Part shown: piece by piece, positions 2,267-49,095 of the stretch
Layout: every line of letters begins with the position of its first letter
Position numbering within the stretch: the stretch's first letter is position 1
Origin: a plasmid
Direction: 5' to 3' (one strand)
Length of the DNA stretch: 64,000 nucleotides
Sequence record: CP132319.1
The notes under the pieces: model-generated
Seen by the model: only the letters and a program-made list of their open reading frames with translations
Databases searched by the model: none
What the model was told of the DNA's origin: nothing
Made by a program: the position numbers and the translations under genes

Positions 2267-3968
2267 TCAGATTGGTCCCTACTTCACTCGCCCGCCAACG
2301 GCCGAACGCCGGATCAAACAGGCCGTAAAGCGCAAGAAGCACTCCAAGGCCCAAAAGGATCGAAAAACCAGAAAAAGCACCGATCAACAAGTAGCCTGCA
2401 ACGAGCAACGCTACGACCGTCGACATCTTCCACAAAGGTACACGAAACCGGTTTCCGGTACCCAAACCGATGGCGCCAAACAAAAAAACGATGCAGGTGG
2501 AAATAACGACAAGAAGGCTGCTGTAGTGCGTCGGCATTCTATAGCCGATCGTGCCGCTCAGATTGTCGAGCCCAAAAATAGCCGCTGACATATCTCTGAT
2601 CAACCAAGCCGCAATATTCTCGCCGGCCGACGTCAGGTACGAGCTTTGGCCCTTCATGCATATGGCGACCAAAATCCCCAAAACAGTACACCTGAAAATT
2701 CCCCGGATCAGGGTCAGTCCGACTTCGTTGAGCTGGGATCGGCAATCCACCTCAGGTCGCGTTTCCAGTTTCTTTCTGATTTTGCAAAAATCATAAGCGA
2801 TCGTGTAAAGCAAAATGAGGCCTGCAAAGAAAATATAGAAAGAGATCGCCATGTACAAATATGCAATCCCTGTGAATAGCATCGCCTCCGGCACTGATAT
2901 GACATCAGGGCGCACGATCGCTAATTTTCCCCAGTCCATGGCATATTCGCCGCCGCCTTTCATTAGCGGGATCAAACACACTTCGATCCACTGAACAATC
3001 CCAGCGAATACAAAGCAAACCAGAAAAACCGCCCAATAGGTAGAGGAAGAGCTTTCTACGTTGCGCGCCCAAGCATCGTGGGAGTCCGTCCCGTCGGCCT
3101 GCGCGACAAGCTTCAGACGCCCCTCGAATTTCCAGAAGGCCAGAAGCTCTATCACGAACACGAAGAATAGTGGCAGGAACACCATGAAGACGAATGTCCA
3201 ATTTGGCGCCCAGAGAAACCCGACCTGCTTAACGACCCCGTCCATTCGGTCGTAACTCGCGCTGTGAACCCCCGTAACATAGGACAAAAACCCAAGAGCG
3301 GTGGCGCCCGCAAACACCGCCGCTGGCAAATTCAAGGGAGAGCCGGAGCTAAAAAGCGCCTCTGATCTCATCGCCAAACCCAAACGCCGAACTGGCGTCT
3401 TGGCGTCCGCATCCCCTGCCAACCCTACCGAGGGCATCGTCTCATCAGGGGCGGTCGCATTTTGTGCTATATCTGGGGCTTCCGGTGCAACGCTGCTTCC
3501 GGCTTTCCTCCCGTCTCGCCTCTTGGCCGTTAATCGAGATTGGGCCTCACTCAACTCCATCTGCCATTCGCTGGTTGCGACCGGATCATCGCACCCAAAA
3601 ATCCTTGCCAGCCAACGAATGTTGGCGGTGCTGATTCCCTTGTCGTTCTCTTGAAACCAAAGTTGCACCGTGCGCAGGTCGATCCCAATCCGGTTGGCAT
3701 TAATCTGTGAAATCGCCTCTGCAAGTAGCTCCGGCGTCCATGGTCCTGCTGGAAATCCATCGCTGCCAAGCGGCCGTCCCGCTCCGGCCGCGGCCGTTCG
3801 TTTGAATAGTTCTTTGAAATCACTCCCGTCCTTCGGCGGAGGGAGAAAAAACTTTCCGTTGTTCAACAAAGACTTAGTGGCTCGCGTTTCGTTTCGTTTC
3901 GCTAGATTTCGTATCTTGTCGTGCCTTCGTTCCCAAATAGAGGCCTGTTCCCCCCGCAACAGACCCAC
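2256..3968 (-). CDS. hypothetical protein: N-terminal HTH-like cytoplasmic domain fused to a multipass membrane domain (about 8 TM)
   Basis: 570-aa ORF. The N-terminal 120 aa is hydrophilic with an HTH-like stretch IGIDLRTVQLWFQENDKGISTANIRWLARIFG. A long Ala/Pro/Asp linker follows, then several hydrophobic helices. Confidence 0.5.
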   Translation of the reverse strand: MGLLRGEQASIWERRHDKIRNLAKRNETRATKSLLNNGKFFLPPPKDGSDFKELFKRTAAAGAGRPLGSDGFPAGPWTPELLAEAISQINANRIGIDLRTVQLWFQENDKGISTANIRWLARIFGCDDPVATSEWQMELSEAQSRLTAKRRDGRKAGSSVAPEAPDIAQNATAPDETMPSVGLAGDADAKTPVRRLGLAMRSEALFSSGSPLNLPAAVFAGATALGFLSYVTGVHSASYDRMDGVVKQVGFLWAPNWTFVFMVFLPLFFVFVIELLAFWKFEGRLKLVAQADGTDSHDAWARNVESSSSTYWAVFLVCFVFAGIVQWIEVCLIPLMKGGGEYAMDWGKLAIVRPDVISVPEAMLFTGIAYLYMAISFYIFFAGLILLYTIAYDFCKIRKKLETRPEVDCRSQLNEVGLTLIRGIFRCTVLGILVAICMKGQSSYLTSAGENIAAWLIRDMSAAIFGLDNLSGTIGYRMPTHYSSLLVVISTCIVFLFGAIGLGTGNRFRVPLWKMSTVVALLVAGYLLIGAFSGFSILLGLGVLLALYGLFDPAFGRWRASEVGTNLNVS

Positions 3969-36987: not shown

Positions 36988-37252
36988 GAACAAATTACAA
37001 CGGGGTTCGATGACCAGATTGTCGCAGCGGGTTGTCGAGAATGTGCACCGGCCTACACCTGACGGCGTTGTGAGTTGCTCCGACTACTATGAGGCCTGCA
37101 GCACGCTGAAAATGCTGTCATTGTTTCGCGAGCGATATAAGCCGCGGTTCCATAATAGAACTTATGCGATATGTTATAACATAACAAGGTGCAGATAGTG
37201 ATAAAGTGCAGCTTGCAGTGGGCAAGAGCTAATTGTCAGTCGAAGGGGTGAC

Positions 37253-39550: not shown

Positions 39551-39711
39551 CTTAAAAGTCAATTTGCTTCCACTGCCGCATTCGGGGTGATGATAGAGTG
39601 TTCAGAAAACGGTCGTTTGCTGGACAGCCGCAACACGATCTGATTTCCATAGGCAGGCGAAACAGAATCTGTTAGCTTTCCCGTCATGAAATCAACGTCA
39701 CGGAATTGTTC

Positions 39712-40311
39712 ATGAATCAACGCATTGGTTATGCGCGGGTTTCGACAGATGATCAGCACCTTGATCTGCAGCGCGATGCCCTTCGCAAGGCCGGATGCCA
39801 GGTGATTTATGAAGAAGCTGTCAGCGGCAAGAGCGCCAATCGTCCGGAGCTCGAGCAATGCCGTAAGGCGCTCCGCGCCGGAGACACCCTTGTTGTCTGG
39901 CGACTTGACCGCCTCGGCCGTAGCCTCCCGGACCTTGTCCATATTGTGGGCGAGCTTGAGGGCGCCGGCGTCGGCTTCGAAAGCCTGACTGAAAAAATTG
40001 AAACCTCGAGCGCGGCCGGCCGGCTCGTATTCCATGTCTTCGCGGCGCTGTCAGAGTTCGAACGGAACTTGATCCGCGAGCGTACGCAAGCTGGCCTTGC
40101 TGCTGCCCGAGCCCGTGGCCGCTCCGGAGGTCGTAAGCCGAAACTTGACGCCACGCAGGTGCGCGAGATCAAAGCCCTTCTGCGAGATCCGTCGATCCCG
40201 GTGGGTGCTGTTGCCAAGCGCTATAACGTATCCCGCACCACTCTATATAAGCACATAGGCGTGGTTCAGCCGCGCCAGGCTGAAAGATCTTCCCATGCCG
40301 CGGCACGCTAG
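39712..40311 (+). CDS. serine recombinase (resolvase/invertase family)
   Basis: MNQRIGYARVSTDDQHLDLQRDAL... catalytic Ser10 region and a C-terminal HTH. Confidence 0.85.
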   Translation: MNQRIGYARVSTDDQHLDLQRDALRKAGCQVIYEEAVSGKSANRPELEQCRKALRAGDTLVVWRLDRLGRSLPDLVHIVGELEGAGVGFESLTEKIETSSAAGRLVFHVFAALSEFERNLIRERTQAGLAAARARGRSGGRKPKLDATQVREIKALLRDPSIPVGAVAKRYNVSRTTLYKHIGVVQPRQAERSSHAAAR

Positions 40312-42073
40312 AGCTTCCCGGCTCCCGCCCATCGATGTCGGCGCCACGCGGATTGAACTCGGCCGCGCCCGTTACCTGGCCCGCAGCCTCGCTCAGACGA
40401 TCGCCGATGATGACCGGGCGGCATTTGCGGCCCTGGTCACGCGCGAAGCCCTGCGGGTCTTCGGCGAACAGCATGTTGCAGATTTCAAACTGCGGCCGGC
40501 GCTTACCGACCTCGCCGGAGACCTTGATGCAACGACGTGCCAGCTGGCCGAGAACATTGGCCGCACGGCGGCAGTCCTTTCTTTCGAGGAAGGTGCCCAC
40601 GCGATAACTAGCCTCTACACCACGTTGATCGCCAGCAAAGACCGCAGCAGCCTTGGAGCTTTCTATACGCCACCGGCGCTGACCCAACGACTGGTCGATC
40701 TCGCCGAAGAGGGCGGTGCGGATTGGGCCACGGCGCGCGTGCTGGATCCGGCCAGCGGCGGAGGCACATTCCTACTCGCCGTGCTCGAGCGCATGCGCGG
40801 AGCCATGTCGGGCAGTGACCCGGCGTTTGTGCTGGCGCAACTTGGCACACGCCTCGCCGGCTTGGAAATCGATCCTCACGCTGCGGCCTTGTCGCAAGCC
40901 CTGCTGGATATCTCGCTCTGGCCGTTGGCTGCAGCCAGCGGGCGCGAAATCCCCACGTTCGTTCGGGTTTGTGACACGCTGGAGGAGGAGGCCGCGCCCC
41001 TTTATGACGTTGTCATTGGGAACCCGCCATATGGACGGGTAGGCCTGACACCTATCCAGCGCGAACGGTTTGGCAGGAGCCTGTATGGTCATGCCAACCT
41101 CTATGGTGTGTTCACGGATATTGCGTTGCGCTGGACGAAGCCGGGCGGGGTCATCGCGTATCTGACGCCCACGAGCGCCTTGGGCGGGCAATATTTCGTG
41201 GCCTTGCGCAAGCTCCTCGCCCAGGAAGCTCCGCCGGTCGCGATCGACTTCGTCCATGCGCGCAAGGGCGTCTTTGAGGACGTGCTGCAGGAAACCCTGC
41301 TGGCCCTCTATAAGCGAGGTGCCAAACCTTCCCGCTTCCAGGTCCACTATCTGGACGTGGACAGCGAGTTGGAGGCAAAGCTCACCAAGAATGGCAAAGT
41401 AGCCCTGCCAGCGGATCCTGCGGCGCCCTGGTTAGCTCCCCGCAATCCGGAACATGTCGCGCTTATTGCGGCCAGTGAAGGCATGAAACACCGGTTGTCC
41501 GATTGGGGCTATGAGGTCTCAACCGGTCCGCTGGTTTGGAATCGGTTTAAGCCTCAGCTGCGAAGCCGACCTGGCCCCGGCACCCTGCCCCTGGTTTGGG
41601 CTGAATCCGTGACGGCGGATGGGCGCTTCGTCTTCAAGGCTGAAAAGCGCAACCATGCCCCGCATTTCAAGGTCGAGGCTACCGATGCCTGGCTGATAGC
41701 GGATAAGGGGTGCGTGCTCCTGCAGCGGACAACGTCGAAGGAGCAGTCGCGCCGCCTGATCGCGGCCGAGCTGCCGGCAAGCTTTGTTGAGGCTCACGGG
41801 GGGGTCATTATCGAAAACCACCTCAACATGATCCGAGCAAAGGGCAAACCCAAGGTATCGGCCAGCGTTGTCGCAGCGGTTATGAACAGTGAGATTGCCG
41901 ACCAGGTATTCCGCTGCATCAGCGGTTCTGTCGCAGTCTCCGCGTTTGAACTGCGGTCACTGCCACTCCCGCCTGCCAAAGCCATGGGCGCGATCGAAAA
42001 ACTCGTTGCCGCTCAAGCTCCTCGCCGGGACATCGAGCGCGCGTTGTGTCAACTTTACGGAATAGCCACTTAA
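40295..42073 (+). CDS. N6-adenine DNA methyltransferase (Type II, M.PstI/M.BsuBI-like)
   Basis: Motif I LDPASGGGTFL, motif IV VIGNPPYGRV. 592 aa. Start may be slightly downstream. Confidence 0.75.
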   Translation: MPRHARASRLPPIDVGATRIELGRARYLARSLAQTIADDDRAAFAALVTREALRVFGEQHVADFKLRPALTDLAGDLDATTCQLAENIGRTAAVLSFEEGAHAITSLYTTLIASKDRSSLGAFYTPPALTQRLVDLAEEGGADWATARVLDPASGGGTFLLAVLERMRGAMSGSDPAFVLAQLGTRLAGLEIDPHAAALSQALLDISLWPLAAASGREIPTFVRVCDTLEEEAAPLYDVVIGNPPYGRVGLTPIQRERFGRSLYGHANLYGVFTDIALRWTKPGGVIAYLTPTSALGGQYFVALRKLLAQEAPPVAIDFVHARKGVFEDVLQETLLALYKRGAKPSRFQVHYLDVDSELEAKLTKNGKVALPADPAAPWLAPRNPEHVALIAASEGMKHRLSDWGYEVSTGPLVWNRFKPQLRSRPGPGTLPLVWAESVTADGRFVFKAEKRNHAPHFKVEATDAWLIADKGCVLLQRTTSKEQSRRLIAAELPASFVEAHGGVIIENHLNMIRAKGKPKVSASVVAAVMNSEIADQVFRCISGSVAVSAFELRSLPLPPAKAMGAIEKLVAAQAPRRDIERALCQLYGIAT

Positions 42074-43137
42074 TGACATTGCCCGCCCTCCTGCCCTGGT
42101 CTGACATTCACAGCCGGCTCGCCGAAATCTTCCCGCCCGGGATGCAGAATCGTGAGCACTCGATATGGGAGATCTCCGCAAAGACCATTTTCGTCATGCT
42201 CTATACCGGCGCCATCGAGGGACGGGATGCATGGATGCGTCCCGACCAGGTGACGAAGATGACTGACGCGCAGGCCTCTAGGACTGCTGACGCCGATCGC
42301 CGCGATTGGATCGCGCTGTCGCTGAAACCCGGCCGCGACGATGTGCCCGGCCGCTGGTATGCGGTCAATTCGCGCGAATCCATCCGAGATGATACCATCC
42401 GCTATAGCCTGATCGAGAATGGGGCCGTTATCGAACGCGCCGGCCTGAAAACGACGTCACCCTCGCCGCGGTACGCGCTGCAGGCGGAGTTCGCTGCGCT
42501 TCTGGATCCTGGGTTGGACGAGGCAACTTTCAAAGCTAAGGCGGATGCGTGGCGGGTGAAGCACCTTAATCCCGGTGCTCTGGCACGTATCACGCTGAAT
42601 CGCTCCGGAACCGTTTCGTCAGGGACGAACGTCCTGGTTAAATTCCCTAATGGCGAAACCCGCCAGATGGTACCAGGAGAGAGTTCCGATATATCCAAGG
42701 CCGTGATTGAAGTTTTCGCGATCAACTTCCTCAAGGTGCCGGGTGTCATCGCATTGAGCGAAAGCGGCAACAAGGTCGTGGCCCGGGATGACAAACTGGC
42801 GAAGGCCATCGGCCTGAAGATCCCGGCCGACCGCAGCTTGCCGGATATTGTCCTGGTCGATTTGGGCCCTGCACATCCCCTGCTGGTTTTCGTCGAGGTT
42901 GTATGGACAGACGGGCCGGTCAACGAAGCGCGCAAACGGACCCTGCTCCAGATTGCGAAGGGTGCGGGATTCGAGCCTGAAAATGTGGCTTTCGTGACAG
43001 CGTTTCTCGATCGTAGTTCGGCGCCGTTCAAGAAGACCGTCAACAGTCTGGCATGGGGCAGCTATGCTTGGTTCGCCTCCGAGCCCGATAAGCTGATCAG
43101 GTTCAGCGACAAGCCGATTCAAATCGAAGGAAGCTAG
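42074..43137 (+). CDS. restriction endonuclease, BsuBI/PstI-family-like (cognate of the upstream MTase)
   Basis: Starts at the ATGA overlap with the MTase stop. C-terminal region ...PDIVLVDLGPAHPLLVFVEVVWTD... resembles the BsuBI/PstI REase C-domain. The gene order M-R is classical. Confidence 0.5.
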
Positions 43138-43158
43138 CCAATTGCTTTGTACGCTGCG

Positions 43159-44111
43159 CTAGCGTTCCTCGCCATTTGCCGCCGTCGGCCGGCTGGCATG
43201 GTTGAGTACGAAATTCGCACGTTCGTATAGCTCGTCGTATGTCAGGATCTCGATATTGCGCGAGTCCCGGCGGAACAGTTCAAACGTCTTGAGCTTGACG
43301 TCCCGCACCTGCGCCGGACCGTGGAAGGCGTTTTCCGAGCCGATAAGCAGGATGCATTTCGGATCAACAGTTTTCTGCCGGATCAGGACCCCGTTTCGGT
43401 CGTAGTTTTTATTGGCGTTGGTCTCGGCTTTGAGTTGCCAGGCTGCCTTTTGCTCAAGGATCTGCGAGACGGCGTCGACGAGGTCACCGGACAACGACCA
43501 CGCGCCCGCGCGGTTCTTCCGATTGTCGAAAATGGGTGTAGACGGCTTTTTCACCTCGACGAGCACGGTGAAATGGCTGCTGTTGAGGAGGAAATCACTG
43601 ATCGCCGCATCGCGGCCGGCCAAGTCCGTTGCGGCAATATGAGCTTCGTCCTGCAGGATCCCAAGGAACTGATAGTCGAGGCCGAACCCAAATATCCATT
43701 CGTTGCGTGCCAGGAAGTGCTGCCACACCTTTTCCACCTGCTGCGATCGGATCCCATGCTCCTGGCGGTAGGAATCCACATAGCCTTCCTCGGCCATAAG
43801 GCGCCGGAAAACCTCCAGCTGGCACTTGCGGTAGCCGAGGTTGACGATGTCATGGGAGGTGACCAGGCCGTTAGCGAGCAAATCGTCAATGATCTGGCCA
43901 CCACCTTGCTGGGTGAGGAGGCGTTTCAGCTTGTCCGCCGTCTCCGAATCTATCCCGCTTCCACCTTCTTGCAACCCGATCCGTCGTTCACGAAGGTTGA
44001 TCAGGTCGAGTTCCGAGAGTAGCTGCAGGAAGGCCGTCAGCTTTTCGAAGGTGAAGTGGGAGAACTTCATCGGCTCGCCCGCCCCCCATGGAAGCTCCTG
44101 CCAGCCTTCAT
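43159..44111 (-). pseudogene. sduA: Shedu-like defence nuclease (DUF4263/PD-(D/E)xK), 3' portion, separated from its 5' portion by the transposon
   Basis: ...DFLLNSSHFTVLVEVKKPSTPIF... PD-(D/E)xK core typical of the SduA C-domain. The reading frame is open upstream of the annotated ATG as far as the transposon IR. Confidence 0.5.
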
Positions 44112-44156
44112 GGCGTCACGACACGAAAGTGGTGAATCTGTCCGACATTTGAGAAC
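44112..44156. repeat. left terminal inverted repeat (IR-L) of the Tn3-family element
   Basis: GGCGTCACGACACGAAAGTGGTGAATCTGTCCGACATTTGAGAAC. Confidence 0.8.
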
Positions 44157-44165
44157 ATATGGTGA

Positions 44166-47132
44166 TCACGCAGCGAGGAAGGAGGTTTCCCGCCGCAGCG
44201 GCCTGAGATCGGGGCTGTCCGTCGGGGTCCAGATGTAATCTCCGGTCAGACTGATATGCTGCCAACCGAGCGGGGTGATATGTTTGATCACATCAGGAGG
44301 CGTGGCGATGCCTTCACGATTGAGCTGGGCGAAAGTCGGTTCGAGATAGAGCGTATTCCAGTAGACGATGGCATTGATGAGTAGGTTCAGTCCGGACGCC
44401 CGGTAGAACTGGCTCTCGAAGGTCCTGTCCCGCAGTTCTCCCAGGCGATTGAAGAACAGCGCGCGGGCCAGGGTGTTCTGCGCTTCGCTCTTGTTGAGGC
44501 CGGCGGTAGCGTTCCGGCGCATTTCTGGGTTCTGCCACCATTGCGGCAGGAAGATGGATCTGTTGATGCGTCCGATATCGCGAAGTGCGAGCGCCAGTCC
44601 GTTTTGACGCGGAAAGGCGGACAGCTTCGCCAGCAAGGTCGAAGGCCGGACCTGGCCGGAACGGATCGTCGTGACGAGGCGGAGGATATCGTTCCAATTT
44701 GCCTTGATCCGCTCGATGTTGATGGGCTCGCCAACGAGCGATGCAAGATTTTCGGGCGGCGTATCGCCCGGGAAGAGATAAAGCTTGCGATCCTTGAGGC
44801 CGCGCAGCCGAGGTACAAGCTGGAAACCAACAAGGTGGCAAAGCGCAAAACTTATGTCGCTGACCCCGCCGGTATCGACATAGTGCGTTTCGATGGCGAG
44901 ATCGCTGCCGTGATAGAGCAGTCCGTCGAGAACATAGATGGCCTCGCTCGCATTGGCGTTCATGGCGATGATGTGGAAAGCGCCGTACTGGTCAGACGTA
45001 AAGCGGTAAAATTTGGCGCCGGGGTTGGGGCCGTACCGCGCGTTGAGATCGCCAATCGCCTCGGCATGGCCTCCCGCCGGAAAATATTGTCCGTCTGAGG
45101 ATGATGTTGTTCCATCGCCCCACAGCTTCGTGAGAGGCAATTGCTTCTGGGCGTTGACGAGGATGGCGTGAGCGGCGTTGTAGCCTTCCTCGCGAATGTG
45201 CCAGTCATGCGCCCAGGCGAGCTGACGCATCGTCAACCCGGGTGAAACATCGGCCATTCTCGTCAGGCCAAGATTGATACCGTCCGCCAGGATTGCGGTG
45301 AGCAAAGCGAGCTTGTCGTCGGCCCACCGACCGGTGCGTAGATGTGTGAAAGCGTTGGAAAATCCCGTGCGAGCATCCACCTCGAGCAAAAGATCGGTGA
45401 TGCGGATTGCGGGCAAACGGCTTTCCACTTGTCGCTTCAGCGACTTGGCGATGTCTGGAAACATCGCCTTGTGCGGCGTGACGCTGAATCCAGCCTCGGT
45501 CAGTTCGACATCATCGAGTTCGCCGACGGCTGCAAGACGGGAGAGGTCAGCCAATCCCTCATTCAGAATCTTGCGCTGCTGGCTGAGATAGGTTTCCACG
45601 TCGGTATCGACGGCGACCGGAAGTGGACCTTCCTCGCGCATCAGCTCAAATGTCGGCGTGGGAATGAGAAAGCTTTCGAATGACTGGAAGCGCTTCGCCC
45701 CCTCCACCCAGACATCGCCCGCATCAAGCCGGCGCTTCAACTCGCTAAACAGGCAGAGTTCGTAAGCCCGGCGATCAATCTTGCCATCCTGAAGGAGGAG
45801 CGGCATCCAGCCTTTCGGTGCGAAGGATGTGGGAGCGTTGTCCGGTATTGCCCGTTTCCCTGTGCGGTAGAGATCGGCAATCACGGAGAGCGCGCGCAAG
45901 AGATTCGCCGCCACGGCGTGACCGCGGAACACGAGGGTCGACAGGAATTGCGGCGCCAGTTTCCGGATCGTCGGATAGCGCTGGAGCATTTCGATTTTAC
46001 CGTCGATGACATCCGGCTCGATCAGCGTATCGACCGCCTGGACACTGGTCGCGAAGACCGGCCATTGAACGGCCTGTTCGAGCGCCTTGGCAACATCCTG
46101 GCCTTTCTCCTTGGCGTCAATGATCGCGTGGCAAACTCTCGAAACGTCCCTCAGCTGTTTCTGAACCTCCCGCACGGAACGAGTGATGCGGGCGGTTGCC
46201 TGATTGTCGGCCCGTCGCGTCAGGACGCCCATGAGTTTCTTAAACATGTCGATGGCGCCGTCGGTCAGATGGCGGGAAAGGTGCAGTACCGTCGCGGCCA
46301 ACACGGCATGCCGGCGTTCGGGGTTGAGATCGCGTAGATGCTGCGCGCTCATTCGCATCCCCTCTGCGGCCAATTCATCAAAGACCTTGGCCGGAATGCG
46401 CTCCATCAACGTCGCCGGTAGGTTCAGGGACCGAAGAAAGCGAATGCGCTCGGCTATCCTGTCGAGGTTGACGGCGGCTGGCGACAATGCCGGTGTCCTG
46501 GCCCAAGCGAGGACGGTGACGCTTGTCCCGTCACGCGCGTCGAGAAGTTTGTCCAAATCGAGCTTGTGAGCCTCCGACAAGCCGCTCGCCAGCGCCCGAT
46601 GGGCTATGCGAATCCCGCGCCGGATTGCCAAATGAAGGATGGCTTCGAGCGCCGCGCGCGCCGGAAGAAGAATTCGCCGGCGCCGCAATTCCTCCACCAC
46701 CATATCCGCTAGAGCATCGGCCTGGCGCAGCGTTTGCGCGGCAGGCGTCAGCCAGCCGGTAAGCGCTTTCACGTCCGCGGGCACAAAAGGACGCATCTTC
46801 ATCCTGTCGAAAAGCAGGGCGAGATGCTCACGCCGGGTCTGCGGGCGCTCGAAATAAGGATCGATCTCGCGGTGATCGACGCCAATCTGCCCTGCCAGAA
46901 ACCGCAAAACGCCAAACGGCAAGACCTCGCCATCCGCAAGCGGCCGGCCGGGATATCGCAGCAAGGCTATGACACAGGCAAGGCCCAACCTGTTCGAGGC
47001 CTTGTTCTGCCGCATGATCAGGTCGAGATCCGGCCGGTCCAGCGTGTAATGTTTGGCGATCTCTCTTTCGTCCTGCGGGATGGTTGTCGCCTGTTGCCAC
47101 CATATCTCGCTCAGCAATGCTCTTCTGGCCAT
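44166..47132 (-). CDS. tnpA: Tn3-family transposase TnpA
   Basis: 988 aa from the internal ATG (MARRALLSEIWW...). N-terminal DUF4158-like region and C-terminal DDE_Tnp_Tn3 domain (...HYVDTGGVSDISFALCHLVGFQLVPRLRGL...). Confidence 0.85.
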   Translation of the reverse strand: MARRALLSEIWWQQATTIPQDEREIAKHYTLDRPDLDLIMRQNKASNRLGLACVIALLRYPGRPLADGEVLPFGVLRFLAGQIGVDHREIDPYFERPQTRREHLALLFDRMKMRPFVPADVKALTGWLTPAAQTLRQADALADMVVEELRRRRILLPARAALEAILHLAIRRGIRIAHRALASGLSEAHKLDLDKLLDARDGTSVTVLAWARTPALSPAAVNLDRIAERIRFLRSLNLPATLMERIPAKVFDELAAEGMRMSAQHLRDLNPERRHAVLAATVLHLSRHLTDGAIDMFKKLMGVLTRRADNQATARITRSVREVQKQLRDVSRVCHAIIDAKEKGQDVAKALEQAVQWPVFATSVQAVDTLIEPDVIDGKIEMLQRYPTIRKLAPQFLSTLVFRGHAVAANLLRALSVIADLYRTGKRAIPDNAPTSFAPKGWMPLLLQDGKIDRRAYELCLFSELKRRLDAGDVWVEGAKRFQSFESFLIPTPTFELMREEGPLPVAVDTDVETYLSQQRKILNEGLADLSRLAAVGELDDVELTEAGFSVTPHKAMFPDIAKSLKRQVESRLPAIRITDLLLEVDARTGFSNAFTHLRTGRWADDKLALLTAILADGINLGLTRMADVSPGLTMRQLAWAHDWHIREEGYNAAHAILVNAQKQLPLTKLWGDGTTSSSDGQYFPAGGHAEAIGDLNARYGPNPGAKFYRFTSDQYGAFHIIAMNANASEAIYVLDGLLYHGSDLAIETHYVDTGGVSDISFALCHLVGFQLVPRLRGLKDRKLYLFPGDTPPENLASLVGEPINIERIKANWNDILRLVTTIRSGQVRPSTLLAKLSAFPRQNGLALALRDIGRINRSIFLPQWWQNPEMRRNATAGLNKSEAQNTLARALFFNRLGELRDRTFESQFYRASGLNLLINAIVYWNTLYLEPTFAQLNREGIATPPDVIKHITPLGWQHISLTGDYIWTPTDSPDLRPLRRETSFLAA

Positions 47133-47297
47133 TGTCTCGGCTTCCAGTTTCGTTGCGGAAACCGCAGCGAACTGGAAAACACATGTCCGACAAACGACCG
47201 TTTCGCGGCATCCACAGTTTTTGTCCGCAAACCTTGTGCTTGAACGGCAAATCGGACATTGTCCGAGTTCAACGAGAAAACGGACAAACCACGTCTC

Positions 47298-47879
47298 ATG
47301 ACCTCTATCGGCTATGCAAGGGTCTCCACCGGCGACCAGGACACCGCCCTGCAACTCGACGCTTTGCGCAACGCGGGCTGTGAAAGACTGTTCGAGGATA
47401 AGGCATCCGGCGTGAAGACTGACCGGCCCGGACTGGCGGAGGCGATCCGCTACGTTCGCGACGGCGACACGCTCACAGTCTGGAAGCTCGACCGCCTCGG
47501 TAGGTCGATGAAGCACCTCATTGAGATCATCACCGAACTGGAGGCCAAAGGCGTCGGCTTCCGATCCATCACCGAAAACATCGACACGACGACATCGGGC
47601 GGTCGACTGGTATTCCACCTGTTCGGCGCGCTGGCACAGTTCGAGCGCGATCTGATCAGGGAACGAACACGTGCCGGTCTACAAGCCGCAGAAGAACGCG
47701 GCCGACGCGGTGGCCGACAAGTCGTCGTAACCCCGGAGAAACTAGCCAAAGCCCGCCAGCATCTGGCGGCCGGTTTGAACGTCCGGGAGGCCGCGGCCCG
47801 CGTCAAAATAGGCAAAACCGCCCTTTACGAAGCTCTCAGGGCTGAAAAAGCAACGACATCTGCGGTTAAACCAACTTGA
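47298..47879 (+). CDS. tnpR: Tn3-family resolvase TnpR (serine recombinase)
   Basis: MTSIGYARVSTGDQDTALQLDAL.... Divergent from tnpA, with a 165-bp res region between them. Confidence 0.85.
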   Translation: MTSIGYARVSTGDQDTALQLDALRNAGCERLFEDKASGVKTDRPGLAEAIRYVRDGDTLTVWKLDRLGRSMKHLIEIITELEAKGVGFRSITENIDTTTSGGRLVFHLFGALAQFERDLIRERTRAGLQAAEERGRRGGRQVVVTPEKLAKARQHLAAGLNVREAAARVKIGKTALYEALRAEKATTSAVKPT

Positions 47880-47890
47880 GTTCTGGATAC

Positions 47891-47935
47891 GTTCTCAAAA
47901 GTCGGACAGATTCACCACTTCCGTGTCGTGACGCC
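47891..47935. repeat. right terminal inverted repeat (IR-R) of the Tn3-family element
   Basis: Reverse complement GGCGTCACGACACGGAAGTGGTGAATCTGTCCGACTTTTGAGAAC. Confidence 0.8.
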
Positions 47936-48181
47936 TTCATTCTTGTAGTGACGGAATTTCTTCAGCGTCACCTCTTTGATGTCGTTCTTGTCCTTGAGGA
48001 AGGTGACCGTCAGCTTGACGCGGTTTTTTGTCTGAGGGAACGGCTGAACATATTCAACTTCCGTGCTGTCGTCATCGTGCGTGACGACATGGAAGAACTT
48101 CCCTTTGCCGTCCCGGAACTCGTTGCCGTAAATATGGTCGAGCCGGTAACCGCCAATGTACTCCTCGTCTGTTGCCATCAC
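47936..48181 (-). pseudogene. sduA: Shedu-like gene, 5' portion (N-terminal 81 codons), in frame with 43159-44111 once the transposon is removed
   Basis: MMATDEEYIGGYRLDHIYGNEFRDGKGKFFHVVTHDDDST.... Conceptual excision (keeping one TTCAT) restores one 397-aa ORF. Confidence 0.5.
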
Positions 48182-48594
48182 TGCCCTTTCTGTTGCACAG
48201 CGAGCTTACAACAAGGAGCTGCATGTTCCTACCGCCGTAGAGATAGGCCGGCGCCAATTCCTGTGGGGCGAAAGCTGCCGCCGGAAAGAGGGCAGAATGG
48301 CGTTTGCCGCTGTTGAAGGCGTCAACTTGCCCTTTTTTCGCCCTATCCGGGTGAACCGTGAGCCAGACCCCTTCTAAGTCCTATTGCTCTACTGCCGCTT
48401 CGCCCTTTTCAGGAATGTCCTGATTGACGATTCATGATTCTTTGGGTGATCCACGCTTCACCGGCTCCCCGAACGGCGGGACGGGCCAGGGGCGAACTTA
48501 AAGCCACCCCGGAGCGAAGCTGAGTTCGCCCCTACCAACCTTGCAAGTCGCGCCTAACCACCGGATATATAGGACATACACGAACGCAAGGAGC

Positions 48595-49095
48595 ATGCAG
48601 ATGGAAGAAACCGTAAAGGCTAAGTCGCCGGATGTCCAGGCGCTGAAGCAGAATGAAAAGAAGTGGACGCCGACGATGATGAAGGCCGGCTGGAGCGCCT
48701 TCCCGAACATCATCATCGAGAAGCAGCGGGCTCTGGGCTTGGATGCCATGGACATGAACATCCTGCTGCACCTGGTCCAGTATTGGTGGCTTGAGGAAAA
48801 CGTGCCGCATCCTTCCGTGGCGACCATTGCCGATGCGATCGGCGTGACCCCGCGCGCAATCCAGAAGCGCATCACCGCGCTGCAGGCAGCGGGGCTGATC
48901 ACGCGCGAAGAGCGCCGGCACAGCAAGTTCGGAAGCCAGACGAACCTTTATCGCTTCGATGGCCTGATCAAGGCCTGCCTGCCGTTTGCAGAGGAGAAAA
49001 TCGCCGCAGCGAAGAAGAAGGCGGAAGACGAGAAGGATCGCGTCAAGCGCAAGAAGCCGAAGCTGGTGGTGAACAACGACGCGCCGAGCGTCTAG
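48595..49095 (+). CDS. winged-helix DNA-binding protein with Lys-rich C-terminal tail
   Basis: ...NILLHLVQYWWLEENVPHPSVATIADAIGVTPRAIQKRITALQAAGLITRE... then ...AAKKKAEDEKDRVKRKKPKL. Confidence 0.5.
   Translation: MQMEETVKAKSPDVQALKQNEKKWTPTMMKAGWSAFPNIIIEKQRALGLDAMDMNILLHLVQYWWLEENVPHPSVATIADAIGVTPRAIQKRITALQAAGLITREERRHSKFGSQTNLYRFDGLIKACLPFAEEKIAAAKKKAEDEKDRVKRKKPKLVVNNDAPSV

Follow-up and report, generated by a model that had tools for sequence, protein, structure and literature searches.

A cargo-free Tn3-family transposon within a Shedu defence gene of a conjugative Shinella plasmid

How did the Shedu defence gene sduA of a Shinella plasmid come to be read as two separate pieces, and what can still be made from it? 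The locus lies in a stretch of 64,000 nucleotides of the sequence record CP132319.1 (this whole stretch is called the window below), which belongs to a 125-kb conjugative plasmid found in Shinella sumterensis UPHL-collab-3. A preliminary description of the window had proposed that a minimal Tn3-family transposon, inserted recently, split a Shedu-like gene and knocked it out. The analysis presented here makes it very probable that a cargo-free Tn3-family transposon moved into sduA between codons 81 and 82 and split the gene on this plasmid. The features on which the argument draws are listed here, with positions counted from the first base of the window.

43159-44106, minus strand: 3' fragment of sduA, codons 82-396
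44107-44111: left copy of the target-site duplication, TTCAT
44112-47935: Tn3-family element, 3,824 bp, with terminal inverted repeats, tnpA, a res-like region and tnpR
44112-44160, plus strand: left terminal inverted repeat, core 44112-44156
44166-47132, minus strand (the same strand as sduA): tnpA, Tn3-family DDE transposase, 988 aa
47133-47297: tnpA-tnpR intergenic region, 165 bp, res-like, with resolvase half-sites
47298-47879, plus strand: tnpR, serine resolvase, 193 aa (Pfam Resolvase, 7.9e-49)
47887-47935, minus strand: right terminal inverted repeat, core 47891-47935; its minus-strand tip reads GGCGTCACGACACGG...
47936-47940: right copy of the target-site duplication, TTCAT
47936-48178, minus strand: 5' fragment of sduA, codons 1-81, ending in the right copy of the duplication

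The ends of the element are as they had been described. Direct comparison of 44112-44156 with the reverse complement of 47891-47935 gives 43 identical positions out of 45, and a repeat finder widens the pairing to 49 nt at 94% complementarity. As a pattern of 35 nt with at most 3 mismatches, the inverted repeat matched just these two places in the 64-kb window, and nothing in 100 shuffles. The TTCAT direct repeats that flank it were also confirmed, and a single TTCAT stands in the empty sites described below. The Tn3-family assignment of the tnpA-res-tnpR unit held up in Pfam, NCBIfam and structure matches. The transposase matches Pfam DDE_Tnp_Tn3 (PF01526; 3.3e-141, model positions 1-389 of 389) and DUF4158 (PF13700; 5.7e-44), scores 999.6 bits against a cutoff of 500 with the NCBIfam equivalog NF033527 (transpos_Tn3), covering 2-954 of 954, and aligns over 21-985 with the solved structure of Tn4430 TnpA, 7QD8 (E 6e-174), while TnpR is annotated in relatives as 'recombinase family protein'. 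With spacers of 9 and 11 bp between genes and inverted repeats, the element is too tightly packed for cargo, and the word minimal was well chosen.

Five resolvase half-sites are found in the intergenic region, TGTCCG at 47184, 47222 and 47260 and CGGACA at 47253 and 47281, and all are unchanged in 7 members of the family, whose overall identity is 83-96%. The set has the look expected of a three-subsite res, at which resolution would be predicted to take place; three putative subsites, whose boundaries we infer, would occupy approximately 47184-47211, 47222-47258 and 47260-47286. Every feature of the Tn3 family that can be tested from sequence is then present, namely the transposase, the inverted repeats, the 5-bp target-site duplication, and the resolvase with its res-like region. 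Two further observations concern this region. The 9-mer TGTCCGACA, which contains the half-site TGTCCG, occurs at 47184-47192 and also inside both inverted repeats, at 44139-44147 and 47900-47908, where it may be a matter of chance or may reflect resolvase binding at the transposon ends. An imperfect palindrome, CCAGTTTCGTTGCGG AAA CCGCAGCGAACTGG, lies at 47144-47175 in the tnpA leader, directly ahead of the start codon, which it separates from the first of the predicted res half-sites; it is possibly an operator, or else a hairpin of the leader.

Deleting 44112-47940 in silico, that is, the element together with one TTCAT, fuses the flanking open reading frames (ORFs) in frame through ...HYKNE-GWQELPWGAGEP-MKFSHF..., a join that had been predicted and that the empty-site contigs also contain. 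The predicted product of 397 aa stands as a restored ORF and needs correction in its length, which comes to 396 aa when the ATG at 48178 is taken as the start; the higher figure counts a GTG at 48181. In a profile search, residues 2-386 of the restored protein match positions 12-393 of 396 of the PADLOC SduA model PDLC00392 (E 5.1e-153), an end-to-end match that therefore spans the excision joint, and 18 more PADLOC SduA models match as well, making 19 in all. Pfam SduA_C (PF14082) scores 97.4 bits over residues 205-375, where the cutoff is 27. The nuclease domain can be aligned (residues 204-380) with Bacillus cereus Shedu (8TI8; E 1.1e-19) and, more weakly, with Escherichia coli SduA (8PS4; E 1.1e-6), and a Foldseek search of the predicted model against the PDB returned, below E 1e-3, only the B. 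cereus and E. coli Shedu structures. The signature FTVLVEVKKP, on which the Shedu proposal had been based, is present and includes E265 and K267. Together with D252 these residues are invariant among 57 homologues; they stand in SDFLL and VEVKK stretches aligned to DFL and IEIK of B. cereus Shedu, in which the catalytic motif is D249/E264/K266 (Gu et al., bioRxiv 10.1101/2023.08.10.552793). By its domain, catalytic motif and full-length profile match, and hence on sequence grounds, the gene is assigned to the Shedu/SduA family, whose members among the relatives carry the NCBI name 'Shedu immune nuclease family protein'.

In its present state the 5' ORF runs from 48178 to 47912 and would encode 88 aa, of which 81 are native and 7 are specified by codons inside the right inverted repeat, followed by a stop; it is listed in GenBank as WLS11928.1. 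The longest ORF of the 3' fragment, 43159-44070, starts at Met94 and has 303 codons (WLS11925.1), and in it the helical linker is preserved, as is the PD-(D/E)xK nuclease domain in full, with all three catalytic residues. An AlphaFold (AF2) model of the restored protein, built on the set of 57 homologues, has a moderate mean confidence (pLDDT 63; a low 36-72 in the N-terminal module) and places strands at 53-61, 66-78 and 82-85, helices at 98-200 and the nuclease core from about 205. Since the insertion lies between codons 81 and 82, it falls, given this layout, in the N-terminal module, for which there is no Pfam match. The arrangement of N-terminal module, linker and nuclease in one polypeptide is present in the restored protein and in the intact alleles; in the window it is split at codons 81/82, which makes the locus a disrupted representative of the Shedu/SduA family.

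Further evidence for a split gene comes from the empty site, which was reached through a protein database and exact-sequence look-ups. A protein search with the restored sequence gave 1,421 relatives, and among the matches listed there are 120 homologues of 357-496 aa (most of about 390-410) that align with 87-100% of the restored protein. The best match falls in a cluster that contains P0124, a protein of 396 aa identical to the restored one, alongside WLS11925.1 and WLS11928.1, which both come from a 125,044-bp plasmid contig of S. sumterensis. P0124 is encoded uninterrupted on 18 public contigs, so the two halves are one gene elsewhere. The preliminary description had named two findings that would refute it, a restored ORF without likeness to SduA/DUF4263 and halves that are unrelated genes in related replicons; both were checked, and neither applies. 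Five of the 18, from five different samples (L014-L018), were read, and each carries the predicted junction exactly, ...CACTACAAGAATGAAGGCTGG..., with its single TTCAT. Against the excised window they align without gaps across the joint, at 99.90-99.99% identity over 8.8-14.2 kb, with a single mismatch over 14,236 bp in L014. The gene order on these contigs is that of the window: single-stranded DNA-binding protein (SSB), helix-turn-helix (HTH) genes, a DnaD_N/HTH_36 gene, sduA, the BsuBI/PstI endonuclease, the methylase, a resolvase and, farther away, blh. Other routes gave less. A megablast of the restored gene against the PLSDB plasmids, a set without the window's own plasmid (CP132319.1), found no match; tblastn of the restored protein against PLSDB found just distant Shedu genes, all below 60% identity; and a peptide-pattern scan of genome contigs with the restored protein found no confirmed relative.

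One more empty-site contig, L001 (Logan SRR30785880), has a sole difference in 2,805 bases, a C for T at its position 848, which corresponds to window position 47941 and changes Asn80 to Asp. The base lies directly outside the right copy of the duplication. The idea that it is a scar of transposition was rejected, since the base of the window is found in five other empty-site contigs; it has the look of a polymorphism that happens to lie in a conspicuous place.

The preliminary description had also called the insertion recent, and besides the single mismatch to L014 there is an identical copy of the transposon, matching at 3,824 of 3,824 positions, on CP132320.1 (49732-53555), the 53.6-kb plasmid unnamed4 of S. 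sumterensis UPHL-collab-3. The two records belong to the same strain by their locus tags, Q9314_28280 here and Q9314_28390 onwards on CP132320.1. The interrupted allele was seen in this strain's records only, and the intact allele in many samples. Taken together, the two identical copies, the perfect duplication, the gene halves that are unchanged with respect to intact alleles, and the restriction of the interrupted allele to one strain's records indicate that the insertion is very recent. The copy on CP132320.1 is flanked by TCAAG and TACAA, with no duplication, and is therefore the likelier donor. The presence of one copy in the 64-kb window and of an identical copy on a second replicon would be consistent with replicative transposition and target immunity.

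The course of events can be pictured as follows. The 3,824-bp element would have entered sduA by replicative transposition, the transposase making a 5-bp staggered cut at TTCAT that left the TTCAT duplicated. A cointegrate with the donor replicon, likely the co-resident 53.6-kb plasmid with the identical copy, would have formed and then been resolved by TnpR at res. The insertion cuts off a beta-rich N-terminal module (residues 1-81), with a presumed sensor or regulatory role, from the linker and nuclease domains. The plasmid can thus not produce full-length, regulated SduA any more, and the Shedu immunity given by the locus is most likely lost.

Some points weigh against parts of this account. 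The tips of Tn3-family inverted repeats typically read GGGG, and those of the present element read GGCG. The record CP132320.1 starts exactly at the element boundary, so that the choice of donor, and even the placement of the copy on that plasmid, depends on the assembly; this placement may be a product of the assembler's handling of repeats. Nothing interrupts the 3' ORF, and transcripts of tnpA could in principle extend into it. Finally, the loss of defence is something we infer: full-length SduA cannot be made from the split gene, and it is because the N-terminal module is a sensor or regulator in both studied homologues that immunity from the locus has most likely gone with it. The statement that the gene was knocked out can accordingly be kept as regards the intact protein and goes too far as regards the 303-codon ORF, which may not be silent.

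The alternative that survives best concerns this leftover ORF, from which read-through of tnpA would yield an N-terminally truncated SduA (Met94-396, linker and nuclease) acting as a deregulated nuclease. Such a protein could be mildly toxic, could bring a cost or benefit tied to transposase expression, or could give residual DNA restriction. The 303 codons are intact and identical to the corresponding part of functional-looking alleles, though a very recent insertion may be all that is needed to explain this. The tnpA gene runs on the same strand, with its stop at 44166 and the ATG at 44070 being 96 nt apart, and a sequence scan found no terminator-like site between the tnpA stop and the 3' ORF; yet tnpA is usually expressed at a very low level and repressed by TnpR, and the ribosome-binding site ahead of Met94 (GGGCGAGCCG-ATG) is not convincing. 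There is precedent for promoter activity in a related Tn3-family element, Tn5393, in which a promoter in tnpA can drive downstream genes (PMC3281130), but here a sigma-70 consensus scan of 43000-48700 found no sigma-70-like promoter, outward or internal, and the 3' ORF has no promoter support beyond tnpA read-through. The toxicity of comparable fragments is documented: E. coli SduA 146-408, which consists of the linker and DUF4263 and so has the domains of the leftover ORF, is toxic (bioRxiv 10.1101/2023.08.10.552762), and B. cereus Shedu 171-380 is a constitutively active toxic nuclease (bioRxiv 10.1101/2023.08.10.552793). Against this, the present strain is viable, and Met94 is internal to the native protein and not an experimentally validated domain start. 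On balance a truncated, deregulated nuclease appears improbable. That the insertion has freed the immune nuclease of its regulation and brought it under the transcription of the transposase, by tnpA read-through, is a slightly longer shot still; if it were true, expression of the transposase would be tied to DNA damage or to some residual restriction without a sensor.

A more technical doubt is that the assembly wrongly threaded a repeated transposon into an intact sduA in a strain with several copies. The strain does have at least two identical copies, the second plasmid record begins exactly at an element boundary, and short-read contigs come to an end after 29 nt of the inverted repeat. However, the two junctions between sduA and the inverted repeats, each with its TTCAT, are present independently in Logan assemblies, on the side of the 3' fragment in L013 (SRR25480257) and on that of the 5' fragment in L019 (SRR25482851), which end 29 nt inside the inverted repeat because the repeat breaks the short-read graph. 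In both runs the contigs to which the gene fragments led have filled junctions, and the intact protein turned up in other samples only, though the empty-site sequence was not itself searched for in these runs. A perfect 5-bp duplication at what is otherwise a single TTCAT is, moreover, a product of transposition and not of mis-joining, and an artefact of this kind is considered very unlikely. The idea that the flanking ORFs are unrelated and join in frame by coincidence has next to no probability, with nothing found in its favour, being refuted by the match to one SduA model from end to end across the joint, by the 120 listed homologues, and by the identical uninterrupted genes on 18 contigs.

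With a genuine insertion into sduA as the preferred reading, the surroundings of the gene can be considered. The window encodes type IV secretion and coupling-protein genes, ParB, DUF932 and SSB, on a backbone common to the Shinella plasmids NZ_CP132308.1 and NZ_CP084755.1. These two plasmids are without the stretch of ~37.2-50.5 kb that holds a restriction-modification pair and sduA, which makes the defence island around sduA a variable part of this conjugative plasmid. The pair next to it is

40295-43137, plus strand: BsuBI/PstI-type restriction-modification pair, methylase 40295-42073 and endonuclease 42046-43137 (Pfam)

and with sduA it makes up a small plasmid defence island. The edges of the island vary among near-identical plasmids (window ~37147-37151 and ~39641; L015 10389-13215; L017 8873-10929). 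L015 has an OLD-TOPRIM ATPase and UvrD helicase pair, Gabija-like, in place of the window's blh, and L017 switches to a mer operon directly beside the resolvase gene (window 39706-40311), which suggests recombination at or near the site of that resolvase. The plasmids NZ_CP084755.1 and NZ_CP084757.1, labelled 'UNVERIFIED_ORG: Roseateles sp. XES5', have a backbone that is 96-99.5% identical to that of the present plasmid and carry the same transposon family; the label, which would place them in a betaproteobacterium, is probably wrong.

The transposon itself belongs to a family that is widespread on plasmids of the Rhizobiaceae, Brucellaceae and Phyllobacteriaceae and is also found on the IncP-1 plasmids PB5 (CP002151.1) and CP002153.1. 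The element matches 66 plasmid records, of which 31 cover at least 80% of the 3,824 bp, and the length of the mobile unit among plasmid records is 3,822-3,824 bp. The records come, among others, from Rhizobium, Agrobacterium, Shinella, Brucella/Ochrobactrum, Aminobacter and Mesorhizobium; two are plasmids of uncultured bacteria, one of which, PB5, is typed IncP. Ten copies of the family were examined and have the same termini in unrelated flanks. A 5-bp duplication is seen in PB5 (TTCCT) and in an Ochrobactrum sp. MT180101 plasmid (TCTCT), and 7 of the 10 are without one; several plasmids, besides, hold 2-5 places that match the element (for both, L004, L005, L007, L008, L010 and L011). The missing duplications and the multiple matches agree with a picture in which copies on these replicons often recombine with one another or transpose within the molecule. 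A literature search gave nothing specific on a Tn number for the element or on reports of Tn3-family insertions into Shedu. A transposon relative of 85.6% identity lies 1.8 kb from an intact Shedu gene in Agrobacterium vitis T60/94 (L020, NZ_CP118262.1 106718-113415). That Shedu gene is distant (26% identity) and adjoins S8 peptidase and AAA ATPase genes, and the locus is another neighbourhood of transposon and defence island, as a single case.

The wider value of the locus lies in its being a natural case of a plasmid defence gene lost to a co-resident mobile element for which the states before and after, and a probable donor, are available. It is a data point for the turnover of defence islands on Rhizobiaceae plasmids over time, and it offers a ready-made N-terminal Shedu truncation for the model of autoinhibition beyond the two studied homologues. 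It also bears on annotation, since GenBank lists the halves as 'hypothetical protein' (WLS11928.1) and 'DUF4263 domain-containing protein' (WLS11925.1), with the disruption unflagged.

How does all this compare with what is known? Tn3 and the cargo-free elements Tn3434/Tn3434a and Tn6122 of Paracoccus likewise have a large DDE transposase with DUF4158 and DDE_Tnp_Tn3, a divergently transcribed serine resolvase with a res-like region between both genes, inverted repeats of ~40 bp, a short AT-rich duplication, a length of ~3.7-3.8 kb and no passenger genes. The inverted repeats of the present element are 45-49 bp and start with GGCG, whereas those of Tn3434a and Tn6122 are 38-39 bp, and its target-site duplication is 5 bp, as it is in Tn3. 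The duplication of the cryptic Paracoccus elements has been reported as 6 bp (PMC3281130), the likeness to them being drawn on described features. The Shedu proteins of B. cereus B4264 (8TI8/8TI9) and E. coli (8PS4/8PS5) are, like the restored protein, encoded by a single gene of ~380-410 codons and consist of an N-terminal module, a helical linker and a C-terminal DUF4263/SduA_C PD-(D/E)xK nuclease with a D...ExK motif. The Shinella protein differs in that its nuclease domain alone can be aligned with them, in that its N-terminal module has no Pfam match, and in that this copy is split by a transposon. The inactivation of defence genes by transposons and insertion sequences, in restriction-modification, CRISPR-Cas and other systems, is common, and the present insertion is an ordinary and well-documented kind of event that involves no new mechanism: a mobile element in a dispensable defence gene of a variable island, and one layer of immunity lost. 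There is no difference in principle between this case and those, and here both the empty site and the probable donor copy are in hand.

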